64,000 bases of DNA from Candidatus Dormiibacterota bacterium (GTDB lineage: Bacteria > Chloroflexota > Dormibacteria > Aeolococcales > Aeolococcaceae): the NCBI GenBank assembly GCA_036276135.1, contig DATBEL010000066.1:21364-85363 (forward strand), written 5' to 3'. The position numbers were made by a program, and so were the translations under genes. The notes beneath the pieces are model-generated. The model was not told the origin of the DNA, did no database searches, and saw only the letters and a program-made list of their open reading frames with translations. Shown here piece by piece: positions 16,227 to 55,180 of this stretch. The stretch's first letter is position 1. Every line of letters begins with the position of its first letter.

Positions 16227-16301
16227 TCCGGGTTAGCTCAGCGGTAGAGCAGGCGGCTGTTAACCGCAAGGTCACTGGTTCGAATCCAGTACCCGGAGCC
16301 A
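16227..16301 (+). tRNA. tRNA-Asn (anticodon GTT)
   Basis: A cloverleaf folds by hand: 7-bp acceptor TCCGGGT/ACCCGGA, D arm GCTC/GAGC, anticodon loop CTGTTAA, T arm ACTGG-TTCGAAT-CCAGT, with an encoded CCA. It closely resembles E. coli tRNA-Asn. Confidence 0.8.
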
Positions 16302-20547: not shown

Positions 20548-20631
20548 ACCGAAATGGTCGGATTTACCGTGCCGGGGCGAACGGGGTACCCTCGGCGCAC
20601 CGCGACCAGCAGATCACAGAGGGGATCGAGC

Positions 20632-21039
20632 GTGCCCGCCAAACGCGCCGACGTCGGCACCCTGCTCCGGGAGGCATTCGGCCGGGAGGCCGAGAGCGTG
20701 CTGCGCTGCCTCTTCTACGCGCGTCGTGCCGACGTCGAGGGCCGCGCCGACATCGCCGCGGTGTTGCGCTCGGTCGCGGAGGGGGAGATCAGCCAGGCAT
20801 TCGGGCACCTCGAGCTCCTCGAGGAGAGCGGCGACCCGCTTGCCGGCGGGGGCGACGCCGCGGGCGATCTCGCCGCGGTGGTCGAGGCGGAGGAGGCTGC
20901 GGTCGAGCGCTACGGCGAGCTGGCAGCAGCAGCCCGCGGCGCCGGCAGCGGCGACGCCGCCGACTGGTTCGAGTCGCTGGTCGCCGCCGAGAACGTGCAC
21001 CTCGGCGTGTTGCGCCGCGCCACCGCGGTGGGCCCGTGA
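20632..21039 (+). CDS. Rubrerythrin-like / ferritin-like diiron protein, about 135 aa
   Basis: An AGAGGGGA ribosome-binding site lies 6 nt before the GTG at 20632. Two E-x-x-H pairs typical of rubrerythrin diiron sites are present (EAESVLRCLFYARRADVEG ... SQAFGHLE and AVVEAEEAAVERYGELA ... AENVHLGVL). Confidence 0.65.
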   Translation: MPAKRADVGTLLREAFGREAESVLRCLFYARRADVEGRADIAAVLRSVAEGEISQAFGHLELLEESGDPLAGGGDAAGDLAAVVEAEEAAVERYGELAAAARGAGSGDAADWFESLVAAENVHLGVLRRATAVGP

Positions 21040-21605
21040 CGGCCGACCGGCTCGGGCCCGGCGAGGTGCGCACCGGCAGCGCCTATGAGGCCGAGCGCGC
21101 CGACAGCAGGGCTCGCCTCGCGCAGGCGGCGCCGGGCCACCGGGTCAGCCTCGGCGGCGAGCTCGTTCTCGTCTTCGAGAGCCGCGAGAGGGTCCGCGCG
21201 TCGCTCGAGGAGCTGCTTCGCGCTGAGCGCGTCAGCGACCAGCAGCACATCGACGCCGAGGCCGCCGCCTTCGCCGACGCGCTCCCCGGCGATCACGAGC
21301 TGGCGGCGACTCTGTACATGGACATCGCCGACCCCGCCGCCCTCGCGGACCGGCTCGCCGAGCTCGGGGAGTTGGGCGCGGCAGTGTTTGTCGACCTCGG
21401 CGGGGACCGCGTCAGGGGGCGCTCCGATGGCGCGGAGGGCGGCGGCGGAGGCTGGCACCTCCTGTTCGCGTTCGACCAGGAGCAGCGTCGGATGCTGCTC
21501 GACGGCGGCCCCGTCGCCGTGGTCGTCGATCACCCCCGGCTGCGGGCCACGGCCGTCCTCGACGTCGACCAGGTGCGGGCGGTCACCGCCGCCCTGCGCG
21601 CGTGA
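21036..21605 (+). CDS. DUF3501 family protein
   Basis: The GTG start overlaps the rubrerythrin stop in a GTGA arrangement. Length and sequence pattern fit DUF3501, a family recurrently encoded beside rubrerythrin genes. Confidence 0.6.
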   Translation: MTADRLGPGEVRTGSAYEAERADSRARLAQAAPGHRVSLGGELVLVFESRERVRASLEELLRAERVSDQQHIDAEAAAFADALPGDHELAATLYMDIADPAALADRLAELGELGAAVFVDLGGDRVRGRSDGAEGGGGGWHLLFAFDQEQRRMLLDGGPVAVVVDHPRLRATAVLDVDQVRAVTAALRA

Positions 21606-22006
21606 GACGCGCCCGCGGGTCACGGCGACGCCGCGGCGCCGGCGGTGCGCGCGGGCTCGTCGCTCCGGTGGCCGGCGCGGTGTTGGCGCTGCTGGCAGGG
21701 TGCGGTGACACCACCACCCAGCCGGCCTGGGTCGCAGCCCACCCCGACACGGCGCTGCTGAGCTTCTCGACCACTGCTCCCGGTGTTTGCGCCATCACCG
21801 TCCAATACCCGAACGACGCGCCGGCCGTGGTCAGCTATCTCGGCGGCGTCTATGTGCAGGTGCGCCGAGAGGGTCATCCGACCGCCCCGGGCGGGGCGGA
21901 GATCGACCATTCCGGCGATTGGCACATCTTCAAGCTGGGTGGCGGCGACCTGCTCGTGGTGACCCCGGGCGATGCCTTCGACTACCGGCTCGAGCAGAAT
22001 TGCTGA
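21602..22006 (+). CDS. Putative lipoprotein (signal peptide with lipobox LLAGC)
   Basis: The GTG start overlaps the previous stop (GTGA). The N-terminus is basic, followed by a hydrophobic segment and LAGC, then a beta-rich domain ending in two Cys residues. Confidence 0.5.
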   Translation: MRRARGSRRRRGAGGARGLVAPVAGAVLALLAGCGDTTTQPAWVAAHPDTALLSFSTTAPGVCAITVQYPNDAPAVVSYLGGVYVQVRREGHPTAPGGAEIDHSGDWHIFKLGGGDLLVVTPGDAFDYRLEQNC

Positions 22007-22016
22007 CCCTGCAAGA

Positions 22017-24203
22017 ATGGTGCCGATGAGGGCACGAGCCGGGGTGATGCCGTTCAGCGCCCTGGTGGGGCAGGACGCCATGAAGCGCGCGCTGCTGCTC
22101 AACGCGGTCAACCCGGCGATCGGCGGGGTGCTCATCCGCGGTCAGAAGGGCACCGCCAAGTCGACGGCCGTTCGAGGGCTCACCGAGCTGCTCCCCGACG
22201 TCGAGGTGGTGGCGGGCTGTCGATTCCAGTGTGACCCGGGGGCGCCGGGCATGCTGTGCGACGAGTGCCGCGCGCGCGCCGACGCGGGCGAGACCCTGCA
22301 CAGCGTGTCGCGCCGGATGACCCTGGTGGAGCTGCCCGTCAACGCCAGCGAGGACCGGGTGGTCGGCAGCATCGACGTCGAGGCCGCGATCAAGCGGGGC
22401 GAGCGCCGTTTCGAGCCCGGCCTGCTCGCCGCGGCCAACCGCAACCTGCTCTACGTCGACGAGGTCAACCTGCTCGACGACCACCTCGTCGACGTCCTGC
22501 TCGACGCGGCCGCGATGGGCGTCAACACCGTCGAGCGCGAGGGCGTGTCGCTGTCGCACCCGGCCCGGCTCATGCTGGTGGGCACCATGAACCCCGAGGA
22601 GGGCGAGCTGCGTCCGCAGCTGCTCGACCGCTTCGGCCTCTGCGTCGATGTCGGCGGCCTCCAGGGACTCGGGGAGAGGGTGCGGGTGATGGAGCGGGTC
22701 TCCCGCGAGGGCGCGCCGCGATCGGTCGACGAGAACGCCGCGCAGGGCCGGCTGCGCGCCACCGTCGCGCGGGCCACCGAGCTGCTGCCGCTGGTGCGCG
22801 TGCCTGCAGCGATGCGACGGTTCATCGCCCTGATCTGTGTGGACGCCGGCGCTGTCGGTCACCGCGCCGACATCGTCATCAGCAGGACCGCGCAGACGGT
22901 GTGCGCCTGGCGGGAGGCGGAGGCACTGGTCGCGGACGGCAGCAGCGACACCGCGGCCGTCGACGCTCTGTCGGTGACCGCCGAGGACGTCATCACAGCG
23001 GCGGAGCTGGCGCTGGCCCATCGCCGCCGCGACAACCCCTCCCAGGAGAGCAGCAGCGCCACCACGTCGCCCACCGAGGCGGCGGCCGAGCGCATGGAGG
23101 AGCTGCGCCGCGACGCGCAGGCAGCCGCCGACTCGGAGGCTGCGCAACAGGCCGATGAGTCGGAGGTGCCGCAGGAGTCGACCTCCGCTGCGGATGAGGG
23201 CACCGGATCGTCGCAAGGCGACGAAGCTCGCGCTGCGGAACCGGCGTCGTCGGCGCAGCCTCAACTGTTTGCCGGCGACCTCTTCCCGGTCCGCAAGATC
23301 AGCCTGCCGCGCGACCGGCGCACCCGCAAGGCAACCGGCAAGCGCAGCCAGGCTCGCAGCAAGGACCGTCGCGGACGCTACGTGCGCGCCGTGCAGACCG
23401 AGCACACCACCGACGTCGCGTTCGACGCCACGGTGCGTGCTGCCGCGCCCCATCAGCAGCGCCGACGCAGCGAGGCCACCGCGGCGGGCATCGTGGATGC
23501 GCCCGCGCTGCACCTCGAGCGCCAGGACCTCAGGCAGAAGGTGCGCCGGCGCCGCACCGGCACGTTGATCGTGTTCGTCGTCGACGCCAGCGCGTCGATG
23601 GACGCCGAGCAGCGCATGCAGGCCACCAAGGGCGCGGTCCTGTCGCTGCTGCGCGACGCCTACGTCCGCCGCGACAAGGTGTCGCTCGTCGTGTTCTCGG
23701 GACGCAGCGCGCGCGTCGTGCTGCAACCCACGTCGAGCGTCGACCTCGCCGAGGAGCGGCTGCAGCGGCTGGCGGTGGGCGGCACCACGCCACTGACCCA
23801 CGGGCTGGTGGCCGGGCTCAGGGTGGTGCGCACCGAGCGGCTGCGCGAGTCCTCTGTGTACCCACTGATCGTGCTCATCAGCGACGGCCGGGGCAACATC
23901 TCGCTGTTCGGCGAGGAACCGCTGCTCGAGGCGCAACGGCTGGCGGCGCAGATCGGCAACGAGCACGTGCGCATGCTCGTCATCGACTCAGCCCGCGATC
24001 ACATCGCCGCCACCCCACTGCCGCGTGTCGGCGTCGCTGCTCCCAGCAATTCGTCAGCACGGTCGCCCCTGTTCAGCGGGGGTTACGGATTCAACGCCTG
24101 TCTCGACCTGGCCGAGCGTTCCGGCGGCGAGTACCTCGGGCTGTACGACCTCAGCCAGGGCGCGATCCTGGCCGGCGTCGAGCGCAGCCTGCGGGGACGT
24201 TGA
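22017..24203 (+). CDS. chlD: Magnesium-chelatase subunit D-like protein: ChlI-type AAA+ N-domain, acidic/Pro-rich linker, C-terminal vWA/MIDAS domain
   Basis: The N-terminal region aligns with ChlI/BchI ([100 protein letters not shown]). An acidic linker follows. The C-terminal vWA carries MIDAS residues (FVVDASASM ... TPL ... SDGRGN). The start was chosen at ATG 22017, after the lipoprotein stop. Confidence 0.8.
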
Positions 24204-24250
24204 TCGAGGCACCAGGCCTCTCCGGCGGCTCAAGCGGCGACAATGCCCGC

Positions 24251-25294
24251 ATGCAGGCAGGTCGCGCCGTGTTCCCCTTCACCGCCATCGTCGGCCAGGA
24301 GCCGATGCGCCAGGCGCTGGTGCTCAACGCCATCAACCCGGCAATCGGCGGCGTGCTGATCCGCGGTGAGAAGGGAACGGCCAAGTCCACCGCCGTGCGC
24401 GCGCTCGCGCGACTCCTTCCCGAGCAGCTCGTGGTCGTCGGCTGCCAGTTCGGCTGCCCACCCAACGCTGGTGAGCAGCAGTGCGTCGACTGCAGCACCC
24501 GGGTCGCCGCCGGCGAGCAGCTTCCGCGTGAGGCGCGCCAGATGCGTGTCGTCGAGCTTCCCATCAATGCCAGCGAGGACCGCGTGGTGGGCAGCATCGA
24601 CATCGAGGCGGCGATCAAGACGGGCGAGAAGCGGTTCGAACCGGGCGTTCTCGCCGAGGCCAACCGCAACATCCTCTACGTCGACGAGGTCAACCTCCTC
24701 GACGATCACATCGTCGACGTCCTGCTCGACGCTGCCGCCATGGGCCTCAACACCGTCGAGCGCGAGGGCGTGTCGGTGTCACATCCGTCGCGCTTCATCC
24801 TTGTCGGCACCATGAACCCCGAGGAGGGCGACCTCCGCCCCCAGCTGCTCGACCGCTTCGGGCTCTGTGTCGACGTCGCCGGCATTCGCGACGTCATGCA
24901 GCGCGTCCAGATCGTCGAGCGTCGCGAAGAGTTCGAGGAGGACCCTGAGGCGTTCGCCATCCGTTACGAGGCACGCGAGACCGCCGAGGCGGACCGGATC
25001 GCCCACGCCATCCGCAGCCTCCCCGACGTCGAGGTCGACCGCGAGATCCTCATCGGCATCGCAGCTGTCGGCATCGAGCTCGAGGTGGATGGCCACCGCG
25101 CCGACATCGTCACCCGCAAGAGCGCGCAGGCGCTGGCCGCCTACGAGAACCGCGACCGGGTCAGCTTCGAGGACGTCGAGAGCGTCGCCCCGGCGGTGCT
25201 GGCGCATCGTGTCAAGCCCGCGGTGGCCGGCACCAAGCGCAACCTCGACCTCGGCGAGCTGATGCAGCGCGCCGTGACGCGCAACGAGAGCTGA
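24251..25294 (+). CDS. chlI: Magnesium-chelatase subunit I-like AAA+ ATPase
   Basis: Collinear with cyanobacterial ChlI and Rhodobacter BchI ([45 protein letters not shown] ... [69 protein letters not shown]). Confidence 0.8.
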
Positions 25295-25321: not shown

Positions 25322-26587
25322 TCAGACCGCCTCGTCCTCGTCGTCGAGGATGGAGAGCGAGGGCCGGCGCGCGAACACCGTCTGGCGCATCAGCCGGCCG
25401 AGCAGGTTGGGCATCCGGTAGCTCTCCAGCGGCACCTGCACAGGTTTGCGCTCGATGTTGCGTCGCGAGATGTGGATGCCGTGCTTGGGCAGGATGCGGC
25501 GGAGATAGCCCCAGGTGTCGTAGAGCCCGTTGCTGACCGATTCATACCCGTGCTGCAGCACCATCAGGCGTGCGCTGTACGACATCAGCTCGTGGAAGAA
25601 CATCTTCTCGTCATCGGGCCGCGGCTCGATGAGGAGGATGTCGACGTCGGGATGGTGGTTGCGGACCAGCTTGATGTGGTCGAGCAAGCCGTCGTGGAGC
25701 ATGCCGCGGAAGACCTGGTTGTAGACCCCGCGCATGCCCAGGTCGGCGAGGTGGTCGCCGAGCAGCTCGCGCACCCCCGCCGGCGTGTGCAGGTTGCGCA
25801 TGTCGACCGGGACGATGGGATTGATGGCGACGATGAGGGTGGCGCCGCGATCGACGGCCACGTCGATCGCCGAGATCCCCTTGATGCCGCCGTCGACGTA
25901 ATCCACGTCGTCGATGCGCACCGGCCGGAAGAGGATGGGGATGGCGCTGCTGGCCGCCGCCGCCATCGAGATGGGCACGTGGGCGCGCTTGTTGAAGCGT
26001 GAGAACACGACGCGCTGGCCGGAATCGAGCGCGCACGCCACGATGTGCAGCTCGGGATCGAGGCGGCGGAAGTCGTTGCTGAACTCGTCGCGCGTCAGCA
26101 GCCTCTCGAGGAAGCGCACCAGCTCCGTGTTGCTGAAGAAGCCGGACGGCAGCAGCGGGGTGAGCATCCCGACGATGTCGACGGGGTTGAGCTTGCCGGG
26201 ATGCCGGGCCAGCTCCCAGGCGATCTCCTGGGCGAGCCGCGGCAGCTTGAGCATGCGCGCCGCCGCCTCGGCGAGGTTGGGGCGGTAGAGGCCCCACGGC
26301 GTTGGCGGCCGCAGCATCTCGTTGCTCCCCTCGAGCCCCAGCGCCATGTCCGTCGGGGTGATGCCGTTGGCGAGGAGGGCGCCGATCATCGAGCCGGCGC
26401 TGGTGCCGACGTAGATGTCGAAATCATTGACGCTGCTGCCCACGAGCAGGTCGTCGAGCGCTCGCAGCGCGCCGATCTCGTAGGTCAGCCCGGTGATGCC
26501 CCCGCCACAGAGCACCAGCGCCCGCTTGCCGCCGGTGGGATCGGGGGCGACGCGCCGAACGGTCGTCGCATTCCTGCGGCTGGGCAT
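25322..26587 (-). CDS. Patatin-like phospholipase family protein
   Basis: The oxyanion motif GGGITG, the nucleophile elbow GTSAGS and the catalytic DGG are all present. Confidence 0.8.
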
Positions 26588-26635
26588 GGCGGGGATTATC
26601 GCCCGCGGGGGCTGCCCCGGCTACAGTGGCGCTCC

Positions 26636-28444
26636 GTGCCCAGCAAGCCACTCGACCTGATCCGCAACTTCTGCATCATCGCCCACATCGACCACGGCAA
26701 GTCGACGCTCGCCGATCGCCTGCTGGAGCGCACCGGGACAGTGGCGATGCGCGACATGCAGGACCAGCTGCTCGACACCCTCGACCTCGAGCGCGAGCGC
26801 GGCATCACCATCAAGGCGCAGGCGGTGCGCCTCGACCACACCGCTGCCGACGGTCTCACCTACCAGCTCAACCTCATCGACACGCCGGGCCACGTCGACT
26901 TCGCCTACGAGGTGTCACGCTCACTGGCCGCCTGCGAGGGCGCGCTGCTCGTGGTCGACGCCTCACAGGGCATCGAGGCCCAGACGCTGGCCAACGTCTA
27001 CGCCGCGCTCGAGGCCGACCTCGAGGTGATCCCGGTCATCAACAAGATCGACCTCCCGGCGGCCGACCCCGAGCTGGTGCGCCAGGAGATCGAGGATGTC
27101 ATCGGTCTGCCCGGCGATGGCGCGCTGCTCGCCAGCGCGCGCCAGGGCATCGGCATCGATGCCATCCTGGAGGCCATCGTCACCCGGGTCCCGCCGCCCT
27201 CCGGGCAGGTCGGCGCACCGCTCCAGGCCCTGATCTTCGACAGCAAGTACGACGTCTACCGCGGCGTCATCGTCTACGTGCGCGTCATGCACGGCGTGAT
27301 CCGCCAGGGACAGCGCATCCGCATGATGGCCACCGGCAAGGACTTCGTCGTCGACGAGGTCGGCGTCTTCCGTCCCCAGCCGACGTCGATGCGCTCGCTC
27401 AGCCCCGGTGAGGTCGGCTACGTGGTGGCTTCCATCAAGGACGTCCGCGACAGCAAGGTCGGCGACACCGTCACCGACGCCGACAACACCGCGCCTGCGG
27501 CGCTGCCCGGTTACCGGACGGTGACGCCGATGGTCTTCGCCGGCATCTTTCCGATCGACTCCGACAAGGTCCAGGAGCTCAAGGAGGCGCTGTCGAAGCT
27601 CAACCTCAACGACGCCTCCCTGGTATATGAACCCGAGTCGTCGGTGGCGCTCGGCTTCGGCTTCCGCTGCGGGTTTCTCGGGTTGCTGCACATGGAGATC
27701 GTGCAGGAGCGGTTGGAGAGAGAGTTCGATCTCGAGCTGCTGACCACGGCCCCGACCGTGGAGTACCGCGTGCGCTTGCGCGGCGGCGAGATGGTGGCGG
27801 TGGACAACCCGTCGATGCTGCCGGACCCCGCCAACATCGACGCCATCGAGGAACCGCGGACCCGGGCGACCATCTTCGTCCCCAAGGCGTACGTCGGCCC
27901 CCTCATGGAGCTCTGCCAGGATCGCCGCGGCGAGCTTCTCGACATGCAGTACCAGCCCGGCGACCGTGTCGCGCTGATCTACGACCTGCCGCTCGGCGAG
28001 ATCATCCACGACTTCTACGACCAGCTCAAGTCGCGCAGCCGGGGCTACGCGTCGCTCGACTATGAGATCACCGGCTTCCGCGCCGAGAAGCTTGTCAAGC
28101 TCGACATCCTCGTCGGGGGCCAGCGCGTCGACGCGCTCTCGATGATCGTCCATCGCGACAAGGCGGCGGTCCAGGGGCGCAAGCTCGCCGGGCGTCTGCG
28201 CAAGCTGATTCCCCGCCAGCTCTTCGAGGTGGCGATCCAGGCAGCCATCGGTGGCAAGATCGTCGCCCGCGAGACGGTGTCGGCGATGCGCAAGGACGTT
28301 CTCGCCAAGTGTTACGGCGGCGACATCACCCGCAAGCGCAAGCTGCTCGAGAAGCAGAAGGAAGGCAAGAAGCGCATGAAGCGCGTCGGCAACGTCGAGA
28401 TCCCGCAGGAGGCCTTCATGGCCATCCTCACGTTGGACGAGTAG
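26636..28444 (+). CDS. lepA: Translation elongation factor 4 (LepA)
   Basis: The N-terminus [21 protein letters not shown] matches LepA along its full length. The GTG start at 26636 gives a 602-aa protein. The ORF-track start at 26045 is a 5' artefact. Confidence 0.9.
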
Positions 28445-28446
28445 GC

Positions 28447-29154
28447 GTGGCGAAGAAGAAGCGCCGCCGTCCCCCCGCCCCCCGCACCACCACGCGGGCG
28501 CCAGCGTCGCGTGCGCCCGCCGGGCCGGTCGCCGCGCCGGTCGTCGCGACCCCGGCGGTCGCGCGGCCGTCGAGGGTCCGGCGCTCCGCGCTCGACGACG
28601 AGTCGCACTGGAGCCGCTTCGGGTTGCTGACCCTGCTGGCGATGTCATTCGTCGCGCAGATGATCGTCGGCCTGGTCTTCCATCTCATCCAGCATCGCCA
28701 GCGCCTGCTCGTCGTCGACCTGTTCTTCTTCCAGGCACCGTTCGTGCTGGCGGCGTGCGTCCTGCTGATGCCGCTGGCGAAGGTCGTCACCCACCAGCCG
28801 CGGATGCTGCGCATGCTCGAGGCGCTGTCCATCGGCGCCGTGTTCGCGCTCTTCGCCCTGCTGCTCACCTCGCTCCTCGTCCACCCCGCCGGGTCAGCCG
28901 CGCCGACCACCGATCAGCTCATCGACAAGCTCACCGTCAACGACGCGTTGGGCATCGTGCTCGCGGATGTGCTGGCGATGCTGGTGGCAGTGCAGCTGTT
29001 CCCCGCCCTGCAGCGCATCCTCAGCGCCCCGGGCCGGCGGGCCCGCGCCCGCATGCTCGAGCGCCGCGCCGCGTCAGGATCCCGCGGCGCAGCCGCCTCG
29101 AAGGACCGTGCCAAGGCGACCGCGCGTTCTCGGCGCCCGCGGACCCTGGAGTAG
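28447..29154 (+). CDS. Hypothetical membrane protein with a basic N-terminus (KKKRRR) and 3-4 TM helices
   Basis: A GTG lies immediately after the lepA stop. Hydrophobic helices are predicted (LLTLLAMSFVAQMIVGLVF, FVLAACVLLMPLA, LSIGAVFALFALLLTSLLV), with basic termini. Confidence 0.5.
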   Translation: MAKKKRRRPPAPRTTTRAPASRAPAGPVAAPVVATPAVARPSRVRRSALDDESHWSRFGLLTLLAMSFVAQMIVGLVFHLIQHRQRLLVVDLFFFQAPFVLAACVLLMPLAKVVTHQPRMLRMLEALSIGAVFALFALLLTSLLVHPAGSAAPTTDQLIDKLTVNDALGIVLADVLAMLVAVQLFPALQRILSAPGRRARARMLERRAASGSRGAAASKDRAKATARSRRPRTLE

Positions 29155-29162
29155 CCGTCCCC

Positions 29163-30341
29163 ATGTCAGCAGTCGATGACGCCCCGGTCAGCGCGCTCTA
29201 TATGCACATCCCGTTCTGCGAGCGGAAGTGCGAGTACTGCGACTTCGTCTCGGTCGCCGGCGCGCGTGGACAGCACGAGTACATCGCGGCGCTGCGCTCG
29301 GAGCTGCGTGCCCTCGGCGAGGTGCTCGACGGCTGCGAGCTCGACACCATCTTCTGCGGTGGCGGCACCCCGGGCCTGCTCGACCTCGGGCTGCTCGCCG
29401 GGCTGATGGATGAGGTGCACCAGTGCTTCCTGGTGTCTCCGCGGGCGGAGGTCACCCTGGAGGTGAACCCCTCCAGCACGTCGATGCGCCGCGCGCAGAG
29501 CTGGCTGGCGGCGGGGTTCAACCGGGTCAGCGTCGGCGTGCAGAGCACCCACGCCGACATCCTCGGCTTCCTGGGTCGCGTCCACGATGCCGACCGCGCC
29601 ATCGCCGCGATCCACGACGTTCGCGGCGCCGGCTTCACCACCGTCAGCGGCGACCTCATCTACGCGGTGCCGGGGCTGGACGACGCCAGGTGGGAGGCAT
29701 CGCTCGAGGCACTGGTGGCGGCGGCGCCCGACCACGTGTCCTGCTATGAGCTCACCGTGGAGGACGGGACCCCGCTGCACCAGGCGGTCGCGCAGGGCCA
29801 TGTCCGTGTGGTCGACGCCGACAGCGCGCTGCGCCAGCATCGCATCGCTCTCGACGTGCTGGCGGGCGCGGGATACCGGCAGTACGAGGTCAGCAACTTC
29901 GCCCGCGGCGACAGCCAGTGCCGCCACAACCTCGTGTACTGGCGCAACGCCCACTACGCGGCCGCCGGGGTGGGCGCTCACGGCCATCTGCCCGCGGCCA
30001 TGGCGCCGCGCTTCGGCCTCGAGCCGGTGCCGTCGGCGCTGTCCTTCCGGTACGGGCACGGCCGCAGCGTGCAGCGGTACATCGCGGCCGTCAACACCGC
30101 GCCGCTGGCGATTCGCGATCCCGAGTGGATCGACGCCACCATGCGCGCCGAGGAGTCGATCATGCTGGGATTGCGGCTGCGCGAGGGCGTCCGCCTCGAG
30201 AGCGGCGGCGTGCTCGCGGAGGCGCGCGAGCTGGCCGCGGCGGGCTTTCTCGTGCTCGACGGACGGCTGGCGCGGGTGACGCCGCGTGGCGAGGACGTGC
30301 TCAACCAGCTGGCGGTCCGGCTGGCGGCTCGCTGCGCCTGA
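29163..30341 (+). CDS. hemW: Radical SAM heme chaperone HemW (oxygen-independent coproporphyrinogen III oxidase-like)
   Basis: The radical SAM motif is present (YMHIPFCERKCEYCDF), with HemN_C-like C-terminal domains. It neighbours lepA, as is commonly conserved. Confidence 0.85.
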   Translation: MSAVDDAPVSALYMHIPFCERKCEYCDFVSVAGARGQHEYIAALRSELRALGEVLDGCELDTIFCGGGTPGLLDLGLLAGLMDEVHQCFLVSPRAEVTLEVNPSSTSMRRAQSWLAAGFNRVSVGVQSTHADILGFLGRVHDADRAIAAIHDVRGAGFTTVSGDLIYAVPGLDDARWEASLEALVAAAPDHVSCYELTVEDGTPLHQAVAQGHVRVVDADSALRQHRIALDVLAGAGYRQYEVSNFARGDSQCRHNLVYWRNAHYAAAGVGAHGHLPAAMAPRFGLEPVPSALSFRYGHGRSVQRYIAAVNTAPLAIRDPEWIDATMRAEESIMLGLRLREGVRLESGGVLAEARELAAAGFLVLDGRLARVTPRGEDVLNQLAVRLAARCA

Positions 30342-30664
30342 CCGTCGCCGGCGCCGGCCTCGCTGTGGCGTGCTGTAACGACCCGGCAGACGGTTCACCC
30401 AGCGGGCAGACATCCGCGTGACGATGTGGCTCAGGGGCTGGAAGTCTGCAGCGCAATCCCGGACGATTTACCGCAGATGAACCGTCCCCCCATTCACCAA
30501 CCGCCGCCCGCCCCGGTCGTCGAAGACCTCATTCGCGCCGGCCTGACGCGCTCGACAGCGCTGGCGATGGAGTCGTGGAAGGCGCGAGAGGTGCTGGAGC
30601 TCCTCCGTGAGACCAACCGGGCCGAGCTCAGTTTTCGGCCAGCGACGGCGGCGCATGGTACGAT

Positions 30665-30691
30665 TTAGCACTCGAACATAAGGAGTGCTAA
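30665..30691. promoter_or_regulatory. CIRCE operator (HrcA binding site)
   Basis: The sequence is TTAGCACTC-gaacataag-GAGTGCTAA, a perfect 9-N9-9 match to the CIRCE consensus. It sits about 20 nt upstream of the hrcA ribosome-binding site. Confidence 0.9.
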
Positions 30692-30710
30692 CCCCGCCTC
30701 GCGGGAGGCG

Positions 30711-31772
30711 GTGGAGGAGAGCGAGTTGGAGACACCGGTCCCCATCCCCCTCGACCTGCGCAAGCAGCAGATTCTCAAGGCGGTGGTGTCCGACTACACG
30801 CGGACCGGCATACCGGTCGGGTCGCACGCGCTCGCCGTCCACCTGGCGTCGTGGTCGTCCGCGACCATCCGCAACGATCTCGCCAACCTCGTCGACGTCG
30901 GCTATCTCCTCCAGCCACACACGTCCGCGGGCCGGGTCCCCTCCGACCTCGGCTACCGGTACTACGTGGACTTCCTGATGGAGGAGGAGGCGGTGCCCGC
31001 CGCCGTCCGGCGCCAGATGGACCCCTTCTTCGCGCTGCTCCCCGCCGGCCTCGAGGAAACGCTCGAGACGGCCGCGCGGGCCCTGGCGCTGGTGACCGAC
31101 GCCGTCAGCATGGTCACGGCGCCCCGCGCGCTCGGCGCCCGTCTCAAGCACCTCGATCTCATCTCGCTGGAGTCGCAGCACGCCCTGCTGCTGCTGGTGC
31201 TCGACGGCAACCTGATCCGCCAGCACCCCGTCGCGCTGGGGCGGCCCAGCGACCAGGCCGAGCTCAGCGCTCTCGCCGACCGCCTCAACACCACGCTGGA
31301 CGGGTGCGAGGCACGCGACGTCGCCACCATCGGCGTCGGTGCTGACGAGCTGCCCGACTCCCTGTGGGCGGAGGTGGTCAAGGCGATCGCGGAGGTGATG
31401 TTGTCGGTCGACGCCGGCCAGGACACGCTGGTGGTGCACGATGGGGTCCGCAACCTGCTTCATCAGCCCGAATTCGGCGACGTCGATCGCTTCAGCGAGG
31501 TGCTCGACCTGCTCGAGGAGGAACGCGTGCTCGGTGAGATGCTCGCCGCCATCGAGAGTGACCACGGCACCCGCATCATGATCGGCCGCGAGACCGGCCT
31601 CGAGCAGCTGCGCCAGTGCAGCCTGGTGATGACCACGTACCGGGTCGGTTCGCAGCGCTGGGGCACGCTCGGCGTGCTGGGGCCGACGCGCATGCAGTAC
31701 TCGCAGGTGGCGCCGCGGGTGCGCTACGTGGCCACGCGGGTCGGCGACTCGCTGAGCAGGACCCTGGGATGA
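30711..31772 (+). CDS. hrcA: Heat-inducible transcription repressor HrcA
   Basis: A GGGAGG ribosome-binding site precedes the GTG start. The N-terminal winged helix matches HrcA (ILKAVVSDYTRTGIPVGSHALAVHLASWSSATIRNDLANLVDVGYLLQPHTSAGRVPSDLGYRYYVD). Confidence 0.9.
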   Translation: MEESELETPVPIPLDLRKQQILKAVVSDYTRTGIPVGSHALAVHLASWSSATIRNDLANLVDVGYLLQPHTSAGRVPSDLGYRYYVDFLMEEEAVPAAVRRQMDPFFALLPAGLEETLETAARALALVTDAVSMVTAPRALGARLKHLDLISLESQHALLLLVLDGNLIRQHPVALGRPSDQAELSALADRLNTTLDGCEARDVATIGVGADELPDSLWAEVVKAIAEVMLSVDAGQDTLVVHDGVRNLLHQPEFGDVDRFSEVLDLLEEERVLGEMLAAIESDHGTRIMIGRETGLEQLRQCSLVMTTYRVGSQRWGTLGVLGPTRMQYSQVAPRVRYVATRVGDSLSRTLG

Positions 31773-32362
31773 CGGACGCGGACGACAAGCGACGGCGCAG
31801 CCCGCGCGCGCGCGCCAACCCCGCTCGACCCTCGCCGCAACCGCCCGCGGACGCTCCCGCACGCGCCGACGAGGTGCCCGCAGACGATGTGGCCGCCGAC
31901 GGGGCGCCCGCCGAGCAGACCCCCGCCGCTCCCGACGAGCGCTACCTCCGGCTCGCCGCCGACTTCGAGAACTTCAAGCGGCGCAAGAACCAGGAGCTGG
32001 CGGACCGCTCGCGCTTCGCCAGCGAGGAGGCGGCTCGCGCACTGCTGCCCGTCCTCGACAACCTGCAGCGCGCCGTCGGCCACGCGGGCGAATCGAGCGC
32101 CGCCGACCTCGTCAACGGGCTTGGCCTGGTGGTGCGCGAGTTCGAGACCGCGCTCGCCAATCTCGGGGTCACCCCGATCGACGCGCTGGGGCAGCCGTTC
32201 GACCCGGCCGTGCACGAAGCGCTCGGCGGCGAGGAGAGCGACACCGTCGACGTCGACACCGTCGACGCCGAGCTGCAGCGCGGTTATCGCCTCCACGACC
32301 GCGTGCTCCGCCCCGCCCTGGTGCGTGTCGCCCACCCGAGAGCCGGCGCGAGGCAGTCCTGA
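31769..32362 (+). CDS. grpE: Nucleotide exchange factor GrpE
   Basis: The RLAADFENFKRR motif is present. The start overlaps the hrcA stop (ATGA) and the stop overlaps the dnaJ start (TGATG). Confidence 0.9.
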   Translation: MTDADDKRRRSPRARANPARPSPQPPADAPARADEVPADDVAADGAPAEQTPAAPDERYLRLAADFENFKRRKNQELADRSRFASEEAARALLPVLDNLQRAVGHAGESSAADLVNGLGLVVREFETALANLGVTPIDALGQPFDPAVHEALGGEESDTVDVDTVDAELQRGYRLHDRVLRPALVRVAHPRAGARQS

Positions 32363-33480
32363 TGGCCACCGTCAAGCGCGACTACTACGAGGTTCTCGGT
32401 GTCGAGCGTACCTGCACCGGCGAGGAGCTGAAGAAGGCGTACCGCAGGCTGGCCATGGAGTTCCACCCGGATCGCAACCAGGGCGACAAGGGCGCCGAGG
32501 AGCGGTTCAAGGAGGTCGGTGAGGCGTACTCGGTGCTCAGCGACCCGCAGAAGCGGCAGCGCTACGACTCATTCGGTCACGCCGGCGACAGCATGCCCGA
32601 CTTCGGCGGATTCTCCTTCGACTCCGCATTCGACCTGTTCGACATGTTCTTCGGCGGTGGGGCCGGCGCCGGGCGGCGCCGGCGCAGCGGCCCGCAACCC
32701 GGGGCCGACCTGCGCCTCAACGTCGACATCACGTTCGAGGAGTCGGTGTTCGGAGCGACGCGAACCGTCGAGGTGCCGCGCCGGGGCACCTGCTCGGACT
32801 GTGCGGGCAGCGGCGCCGCGCCGGGCACCCAACCGGTGACGTGCACCGAGTGCGGCGGCAGCGGCCAGGTGCGCCGCGCCGTGCAGAGCATCTTCGGCCA
32901 GATGGTCAACGTCACCGCGTGTCCGCGCTGCCATGGCGAGGGACGCATCGTCGAGCAGCCGTGCCCGACGTGCCGCGGTCAGGGCCGGGTCGAGGAGCGG
33001 CAGACCCTCGACATCACCATCCCACCCGGCGTCGACGATGACGTGACGCTGCGGTACGCGGGGCAGGGTGAGGCGGGCCCGCGTGGCGGCAACCGCGGTG
33101 ACCTGTACGTGGGCTTCCGCATCGCGCCCCACCCACACCTGGTGCGGCGCGGCCAGGACCTGCTCTACGAGCTCGCGATCAGCGTCCCCCAGGCCGTGCT
33201 CGGGGATCGCATCACGGTGCCGACGGCGAACGGCGAGCACCAGGTCGATGTGCCGGCCGGCACCCAGCACGGCCGCGTCCTGAAGATCGCCGGGATGGGC
33301 GTTCCGCACGTCCGCAGCGGCCGTCGGGGTGACCAGCTCTGCATCGTCCATGTCGCCGTCCCGACGCATCTCAGCAGCGCCCAGCGCGACGTGTACCTGC
33401 AGCTCGGTGAGCGCAACGGCAAGCCGGCCGAGGTGCGCAAGGGATTCTTCGACACCATCAAGGACGCGCTCAGGGGCTGA
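32362..33480 (+). CDS. dnaJ: Chaperone DnaJ
   Basis: The J domain carries HPDRN. Four CxxCxGxG zinc-finger repeats are present (CSDCAGSG, CTECGGSG, CPRCHGEG, CPTCRGQG), followed by a C-terminal substrate-binding domain. Confidence 0.9.
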   Translation: MATVKRDYYEVLGVERTCTGEELKKAYRRLAMEFHPDRNQGDKGAEERFKEVGEAYSVLSDPQKRQRYDSFGHAGDSMPDFGGFSFDSAFDLFDMFFGGGAGAGRRRRSGPQPGADLRLNVDITFEESVFGATRTVEVPRRGTCSDCAGSGAAPGTQPVTCTECGGSGQVRRAVQSIFGQMVNVTACPRCHGEGRIVEQPCPTCRGQGRVEERQTLDITIPPGVDDDVTLRYAGQGEAGPRGGNRGDLYVGFRIAPHPHLVRRGQDLLYELAISVPQAVLGDRITVPTANGEHQVDVPAGTQHGRVLKIAGMGVPHVRSGRRGDQLCIVHVAVPTHLSSAQRDVYLQLGERNGKPAEVRKGFFDTIKDALRG

Positions 33481-54825: not shown

Positions 54826-54897
54826 GGCGGCGTGGAGCAGTGGCAGCTCGTCGGGCTCATAACCCGAAGGTCGCCGGTTCGAGTCCGGCCGCCGCAA
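54826..54897 (+). tRNA. tRNA-Met (anticodon CAT), initiator-like tRNA-fMet
   Basis: The sequence is near-identical to E. coli tRNA-fMet through the D, anticodon and T arms (TGGAGCAG...GCTCGTCGGGCTCATAACCCGAAGGTCG.CGGTTC). The three G-C pairs in the anticodon stem (GGG/CCC) are present. The 1:72 pair is mismatched (G-A by my count). CCA is not encoded. Confidence 0.7.
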
Positions 54898-55107: not shown

Positions 55108-55180
55108 GGCGGCATAGCTCAGTTGGTAGAGCGCCCGGCTCATACCCGGTATGTCCCTGGTTCGAATCCAGGTGCCGCCA
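55108..55180 (+). tRNA. tRNA with anticodon CAT: elongator tRNA-Met or lysidine-type tRNA-Ile2
   Basis: A cloverleaf folds: acceptor GGCGGCA/TGCCGCC, D arm GCTC-AGTTGGTA-GAGC, anticodon loop CTCATAC, T arm CCTGG-TTCGAAT-CCAGG. It lies 25 nt upstream of tilS. Confidence 0.7.

Follow-up and report, generated by a model that had tools for sequence, protein, structure and literature searches.

A non-photosynthetic ChlD/ChlI ATPase pair of Dormibacterota without a CobN gene in its neighbourhood

Class I chelatases are driven by a motor in which ChlI forms a ring, ChlD acts as a bridge and a large subunit completes the enzyme (reviewed in PMC7689651). In a 64,000-nucleotide stretch of a Candidatus Dormiibacterota contig (hereafter the window), positions 22017–25294 hold a chlD-like gene and a chlI-like gene with no gene for a large subunit beside them, which raises the question of what such a pair is for. 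A first-pass annotation of this DNA took three features of the pair, namely an Ala in the P-loop, a four-Cys stretch and a D-before-I gene order, as pointing to a distinct clade and perhaps to something new. We find that, judging from profile and motif comparisons, the pair is an ordinary representative of a widespread family, the non-photosynthetic ChlD/ChlI ATPases of the TIGR02442 type, and that the GTAKST motif, the four Cys and the D-before-I order are, on the same comparisons, the default of that family, CobN operons included, and no signal of new biochemistry. As to function, we put forward tentatively, and at a little short of an even chance, that the operon supplies the motor of a class I, ATP-dependent tetrapyrrole chelatase and serves a CobN-type subunit encoded elsewhere.

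A complete ChlI-type module in both genes

The two genes are co-directional, with the chlD-like gene (D) ahead of the chlI-like gene (I), and their open reading frames (ORFs) fill the interval. The features to which we refer are as follows.

22017..24203, plus strand: chlD-like gene (D), ATG start, 728 amino acids, a single uninterrupted ORF
22140..22166, plus strand: Walker A of D, GQKGTAKST, with Ala replacing the second P-loop Gly
22218..22268, plus strand: four-Cys motif of D (17 residues), CX3CX8CX2C
22449..22877, plus strand: other AAA+ motifs of D, namely Walker B LYVDEVN, sensor 1 GTMNPEEG, the Arg-finger region (10 residues) and sensor 2 GHRADIV
23517..24200, plus strand: VWA domain of D, Pfam VWA_2 and VWA
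24251..25294, plus strand: chlI-like gene (I), ATG start, 347 amino acids
24365..24391, plus strand: Walker A of I, GEKGTAKST, identical in 113 of 120 close homologues
24443..24493, plus strand: four-Cys motif of I (17 residues), CX3CX8CX2C, comprising C65, C69, C78 and C81

The coordinates, the two genes, their order and the quoted motif strings had all been given exactly in the first-pass annotation. D consists of an N-terminal ChlI-like AAA+ module, an acidic Ala/Ser-rich linker of 160 residues and a C-terminal VWA (integrin I-like) domain, and Pfam places Mg_chelatase, AAA_5 and AAA_lid_2 in both proteins, with VWA_2 and VWA in addition at the C-terminus of D. Residues of the metal-ion-dependent adhesion site (MIDAS) type are present in the VWA domain (DASAS at amino acids 523–527, GGTTPL at 588–593 and SDGRGN at 622–627). 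I is 56% identical to the first 338 residues of D; Walker B, sensor 1, the Arg-finger region and sensor 2 are letter-identical between the two proteins, and the ChlI-type module is complete in the pair, with Walker A and B, sensor 1, Arg finger and sensor 2 all present. Since the AAA+ motif sequences of ChlI are preserved in D, that protein too may bind or hydrolyse ATP.

The start of I is most likely the ATG at 24251, which gives the 347 residues called in homologues that are 94–98% identical; an alternative start, TTG 24200, overlaps the chlD stop. A database look-up of the exact I protein returned no identical entry for either the TTG or the ATG version. The gene upstream of chlD ends at 22006, and a promoter and terminator scan at the pair detected none, as expected at the window's G+C content of about 71%. 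We rejected a programmed frameshift in chlD on the grounds that the AAA+ and VWA parts share one frame in the single ORF from 22017 to 24203.

Among NCBIfam models, TIGR02442 (‘putative cobaltochelatase’) is the top match for both D (706.4 bits) and I (478.5 bits, over the N-terminal half of the model only). It ranks ahead of the Mg-chelatase models, whose cut-offs both proteins miss (407.8 versus 466.95 bits for I with TIGR02030, and 404.6 versus 499.55 bits for D with TIGR02031), which bears out the annotation's placement of the pair outside photosynthesis. CobS, CobT and MoxR models are absent from the listed Pfam and NCBIfam matches of D and I at E ≤ 1e-3. The fold is that of ChlI/BchI: matches of I to ChlI and BchI in the PDB have E values from 1e-105 to 1e-90, and an AlphaFold2 model of I (predicted local distance difference test score, pLDDT, 85) superimposes on BchI 1g8p and ChlI 8osg/8osf with template modelling (TM) scores of 0.81–0.87.

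The P-loop Ala, the four Cys and the gene order across the family

We compared the pair with its best 120 homologues, all at least 72% identical, with a wider set of the 150 best representatives of 50%-identity clusters out of 1.84 billion proteins (49–79% identity), and with 80 related loci (numbered with the prefix L) from GTDB species genomes, each with about 20 kb readable. The annotation had proposed that the GTAKST and Cys motifs mark a distinct clade, a proposal that these comparisons contradict. Among the 150 nearest representatives the P-loop residue is Ala in 101 and Gly in 47, and Cys occupies all four aligned positions in 128; CX3CX8CX2C is found in 112 of the 120 close homologues, and all four Cys of I are invariant in a 41-sequence alignment. 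Furthermore, GTAKST and the four Cys occur together in 27 of the 28 ChlI-type subunits from loci with CobN within 10 kb, examples being those of Sporomusa, Phascolarctobacterium, Fusobacterium and Methanosarcina. By these counts Ala is the normal P-loop residue of the non-photosynthetic ChlI/ChlD family. Its conservation across the family, CobN-linked subunits included, makes an inactive P-loop unlikely. RavA and MoxR, AAA+ ATPases that belong to the same clade and are active, also have Ala before the P-loop Lys, which is therefore no sign of inactivity.

Nor is the gene order distinctive, as had been suggested, since D precedes I beside CobN in five loci (L032, L033, L036, L046 and L057), three of which (L032, L033 and L057) are the nearest relatives outside Dormibacterota and are D-then-I operons adjoining CobN. 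More broadly, of the 52 relatives that are no more than 62% identical, 31 show a CobN-like match within 10 kb; four of these matches were verified in full with Pfam (E = 0), and a few are partial or about 29–35% identical. The annotation had named, as a finding that would speak against novelty, homologues with the same motifs already characterised as a CobN-dependent cobaltochelatase ATPase: close homologues are indeed linked to CobN, but by genome context and not by biochemistry. CobN-ChlD-ChlI loci of anaerobes (L057:13-7886 and L033:11086-18247) also carry a TonB-dependent receptor and a BtuCDF/FecCD-type ABC transporter, and a further one (L054:3385-9968) carries CbiQ together with an ABC-2 exporter. 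This gene content suggests that the CobN-linked relatives take part in uptake and salvage of tetrapyrroles (corrinoids or porphyrins) rather than in de novo B12 synthesis (for comparison on corrinoid/porphyrin salvage as the true substrate route, see PMC8305020 and PMC12583661).

The four-Cys stretch had been described as an insertion. In phmmer alignments, D and I both align with cyanobacterial ChlI (8osf and 6l8d) with no gap between the P-loop and the end of the Cys stretch, and the four Cys are therefore substitutions in a loop that is equally long in all of them. In Rhodobacter BchI, which was also said to lack the insertion, the loop is only 7 residues shorter and keeps the first Cys. 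What stands of the earlier description is a plausible structural metal (Zn) site. The AlphaFold2 model of I puts C65 and C69 in the loop that follows strand 59–62, and C78 and C81 at the N-terminus of helix 79–86, a placement judged from secondary structure and pLDDT rather than from Cys–Cys distances. Structural Zn sites typically have this arrangement, and on this model the four Cys most likely form one. A literature search for a Zn or Cys site on ChlI-type motors found no description of the four-Cys motif. The four-Cys site is nearly universal in the family, and a site of Zn binding or redox activity in class I chelatase motors would merit a direct test.

A CobN-type partner elsewhere or another client

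The nearest proteins and loci to those of the window come from metagenome-assembled genomes (MAGs) of Candidatus Dormibacter and other Dormibacterota, one of them (L001) syntenic with the window. The Dormibacterota clade comprises about 29 species-level loci in which I is 65–94% identical, and wherever both genes lie on the available contig stretch chlD precedes chlI, directly abutting it except in L017. Against the Dormibacterota orthologues, the ratio of nonsynonymous to synonymous substitution rates (dN/dS) is 0.09–0.19 for I and 0.11–0.29 for D. Both genes are under purifying selection, and we rejected a decaying pair or pseudogene on the strength of these ratios. In one Dormibacterota contig (1.17 Mb, ERZ25039548; L003:7800-10000) chlD is broken into an AAA+ part and two VWA pieces in different frames; public gene calls there are spurious, and the break reflects either pseudogenization or an error in the assembly of long reads.

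A phylogeny of the AAA+ domains, which the first-pass annotation had proposed, was run as a bootstrapped neighbour-joining tree, a rough method, of 122 AAA+ modules with Synechocystis ChlI as the root. Among the Dormibacterota sequences, the I modules (98 of 100 bootstraps) and the D AAA+ modules (85 of 100) each form a clade and are each other's closest relatives, joined at 92 of 100. That joint clade points to a lineage-specific duplication or to concerted evolution of the two modules, and it agrees with the chlD-to-chlI duplication scenario set out in PMC9227772. Another Dormibacterota MAG encodes a D-only paralogue (L041:9731-12064; AAA+ plus VWA, GEKGTGKST, four Cys) directly after a malate/lactate dehydrogenase gene; it has no chlI after it and no CobN in the 14.7 kb available, and it groups with the Dormibacterota D clade.

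By homology to BchI/ChlI and BchD/ChlD, we infer that I would form an AAA+ ring that hydrolyses ATP and that D would dock onto it through its own ChlI-like AAA+ module. The acidic linker and MIDAS-bearing VWA domain of D would then pass the work on to the large subunit, a CobN-family protein in which macrocycle and metal are held; this partner, presumably encoded outside the window, would insert cobalt (or another metal) into a corrinoid or porphyrin, or remove it. The four Cys would bind a structural Zn; the ChlI of Mg-chelatase has the same loop without the cysteines. It is accepted, as a prediction from genomes, that ChlID takes the place of CobS/CobT in working with CobN (Rodionov 2003, cited by PMC9227772; PMC3595025).

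Several observations weigh against a CobN-type partner. Both D and I fall short of the TIGR02442 trusted cut-off of 779.45 bits, and in the literature examined (PMC8305020 and PMC9227772) there is no biochemically characterised ChlID-CobN enzyme of this type. The annotation's statement that no CobN/ChlH-like gene lies within 20 kb was borne out and extends to the whole window, in which tblastn with four CobN proteins verified by PF02514 (E = 0) found no CobN/ChlH homologue at E ≤ 1e-3; the window's only three ORFs longer than 1000 amino acids encode an AddA/UvrD-type (UvrD/PD-(D/E)XK) helicase-nuclease, Mfd and IleRS. In none of the roughly 29 Dormibacterota loci is a CobN encoded within 10 kb of the pair, and no B12, cobalt-transport or tetrapyrrole-uptake genes were found near the pair. 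A search seeded with the CobN of L032, the nearest CobN-linked relative, returned no Dormibacterota CobN among its best 120 matches, all at least 60% identical to the seed and mostly from thermophilic Firmicutes; having reached only close relatives of the seed, it is uninformative on a distant Dormibacterota CobN. There is likewise no cobalamin riboswitch near the pair, an absence that carries no weight since none was found at seven CobN-linked control loci either. A literature search on Dormibacterota with B12, cobalamin or cobN yielded nothing useful.

It is on these gaps that the main alternative builds, according to which Dormibacterota lack a CobN/ChlH-family protein and the pair is a self-contained AAA+/VWA remodelling machine with another client, either a metalloenzyme needing cofactor insertion (compare MoxR-type AAA+ proteins with VWA partners) or a haem-handling protein. 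We regard this as a serious possibility, if on balance somewhat improbable. There is precedent in PMC9227772, which documents chlD plus chlI without chlH/cobN or the chlorophyll and B12 pathways in other phyla. The neighbours of the pair are housekeeping genes only, 26 of the 29 loci placing it upstream of lepA-hemW-hrcA-grpE-dnaJ, and the L041 paralogue sits among housekeeping genes likewise; strong purifying selection shows, in addition, that the pair is in use. Yet the absence of CobN from these loci is read from about 20 kb per genome and not from whole genomes, and missing linkage counts for little given that some Actinobacteria have cobN at a distance from chlID. Moreover, no candidate client is conserved beside the pair, and the closest outgroup operons are CobN-linked. 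A more elaborate version, in which the pair arose in CobN/ChlH-less Dormibacterota by its own AAA+ duplication, has remained next to lepA-hemW as a CobN-independent machine with a new client, and uses its four Cys for metal or redox sensing and not purely as a structural Zn site, strikes us as unlikely.

Two further explanations fare much worse. The idea that the pair represents a new clade, set apart by its deviant Walker A, an inserted Zn ribbon and a reversed order and implying new biochemistry, has in its favour that the motifs are real and unlike those of photosynthetic ChlI/BchI and that the Dormibacterota modules do form a clade of their own, but we hold it to be very improbable: each of the three features prevails in the family and is found in CobN-linked operons too, and relative to cyanobacterial ChlI there is no insertion at all. 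A Mg-chelatase motor for cryptic (bacterio)chlorophyll synthesis would account for the strong sequence and fold similarity to ChlI/BchI, and is still harder to credit when the scores with TIGR02030 and TIGR02031 lie under their cut-offs and under the score with TIGR02442, when the window holds no ChlH/BchH or other bch/chl genes and when the motifs agree with the non-photosynthetic group; Dormibacterota are not known to be phototrophic. A class I chelatase motor working with a CobN-type subunit encoded elsewhere is the function that we tentatively favour.

Downstream of the pair lies the block lepA-hemW (HemN-like radical SAM)-hrcA-grpE-dnaJ, at 25322-33480 in the window and usually also in the Dormibacterota loci (L004-L031), lepA being present in 26 of the 29. 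HemW belongs to a haem chaperone family, and the adjacency of chlDI and hemW could be functional, but chance synteny is as likely because this is a common conserved block. Synteny of the Dormibacterota type (chlD-chlI-lepA) also occurs on contigs labelled ‘Acidiferrales’, ‘Eisenbacteria’ and ‘Micrarchaeaceae archaeon’, and the CobN of L032 (‘Armatimonadota’) is 86% identical to those of Thermoanaerobacter and Desulfofundulus. The MAG labels of L020, L027, L030 and L032 look wrong for these contigs, and the conflicts could reflect mis-binning or recent transfer.

Upstream of the pair, the window encodes an acyl-CoA dehydrogenase, a thioredoxin-like protein, DUF4395, a rubrerythrin-like protein, DUF3501 and a small predicted protein whose N-terminal part includes a hydrophobic segment; after the pair comes a patatin-like gene on the opposite strand. 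The small rubrerythrin-like gene is translationally coupled to the DUF3501 gene through a 4-base overlap (20614-21605), and the two recur in 5 and 13 of the 29 Dormibacterota loci, respectively. Three tRNA genes lie in the window (16227-16298, 54826-54897 and 55108-55180), the one after rpoD (16227) being conserved in position in L005, L009, L015 and L018.

Comparison with known systems

With the TIGR02442 group, the pair shares the AAA+-linker-VWA order, GTAKST, the CX3CX6-9CX2C pattern and a ChlI-like module in ChlD, and D-then-I operons occur in that group too. It differs in the score of D (706 against a cut-off of 779) and in that the Dormibacterota loci lack linkage to CobN, cobalt transport and B12 genes; the TIGRFAM description of TIGR02442 presumably refers to proximity to just such genes. 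CobN-linked ChlID relatives often lie by TonB-receptor and BtuCDF-like uptake genes or CbiQ, whereas the pair of the window lies among housekeeping genes. From the BchI/ChlI and BchD/ChlD of Mg-chelatase (1g8p, 6l8d and 8osf), which are alike in fold, in AAA+ motifs and, at about 50% identity, in sequence, and which in the case of cyanobacterial ChlI have the same loop length, the pair is set apart by GTAKST in place of GTGKST and by its four Cys, of which ChlI has none and BchI only the first; the Mg-chelatase motor, moreover, works with ChlH/BchH. CobS/CobT of the Pseudomonas-type aerobic cobaltochelatase and the MoxR-VWA systems share the logic of an AAA+ ring plus a VWA/MIDAS adaptor to a metallo-client, but they are mechanistic analogues only, with no model match to D or I.

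The same family includes fs-chlD, in which ChlI-like and ChlD-like products come from one locus (Antonov 2020, as cited in PMC9227772). The chlD of the window is, in contrast, uninterrupted, is accompanied by a separate chlI and has no poly-A slippery run with a VWA part in the -1 frame. Eight Anaerolineae/Chloroflexota loci among our relatives (L050, L065, L071, L072, L074, L077, L078 and L082) match the programmed-frameshift chlD described by Antonov: about 1.1 kb downstream of each match start, a run of 7–10 A lies right before the stop of the ChlI-like ORF, the VWA part continues in the -1 frame, and none of the eight has CobN within 10 kb.

There is a further parallel with the ‘Stage 2’ chlD plus chlI pairs of Chloroflexi, Spirochaetes, Thermodesulfobacteria and Nitrospirae, which occur without a large subunit or the B12 and chlorophyll pathways and whose function is called unknown (Kuznetsov, Milenkin and Antonov 2022, PMC9227772). 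Like these, and in a phylum neighbouring Chloroflexi, the Dormibacterota pair consists of adjacent chlD and chlI with no chlH/cobN nearby and no pathway context. The ‘Stage 2’ pairs were, however, called from whole genomes, whereas for Dormibacterota the absence of CobN is one from loci of about 20 kb and from the window; Dormibacterota are not named among the phyla in the text examined, and here the clade of I genes is sister to that of the D AAA+ modules, pointing to a lineage-specific duplication.

Non-photosynthetic ChlI/ChlD proteins and their predicted role with CobN have long been known, and the pair is a new member at the level of lineage. Its value is mainly corrective, in that an odd P-loop, Cys and gene order are not evidence of new biochemistry. 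Dormibacterota are an abundant aerobic soil phylum. They now join the lineages with a conserved ChlD plus ChlI and no nearby large subunit, and they offer a useful place to test the function of such unlinked pairs, which PMC9227772 acknowledges to be unknown.

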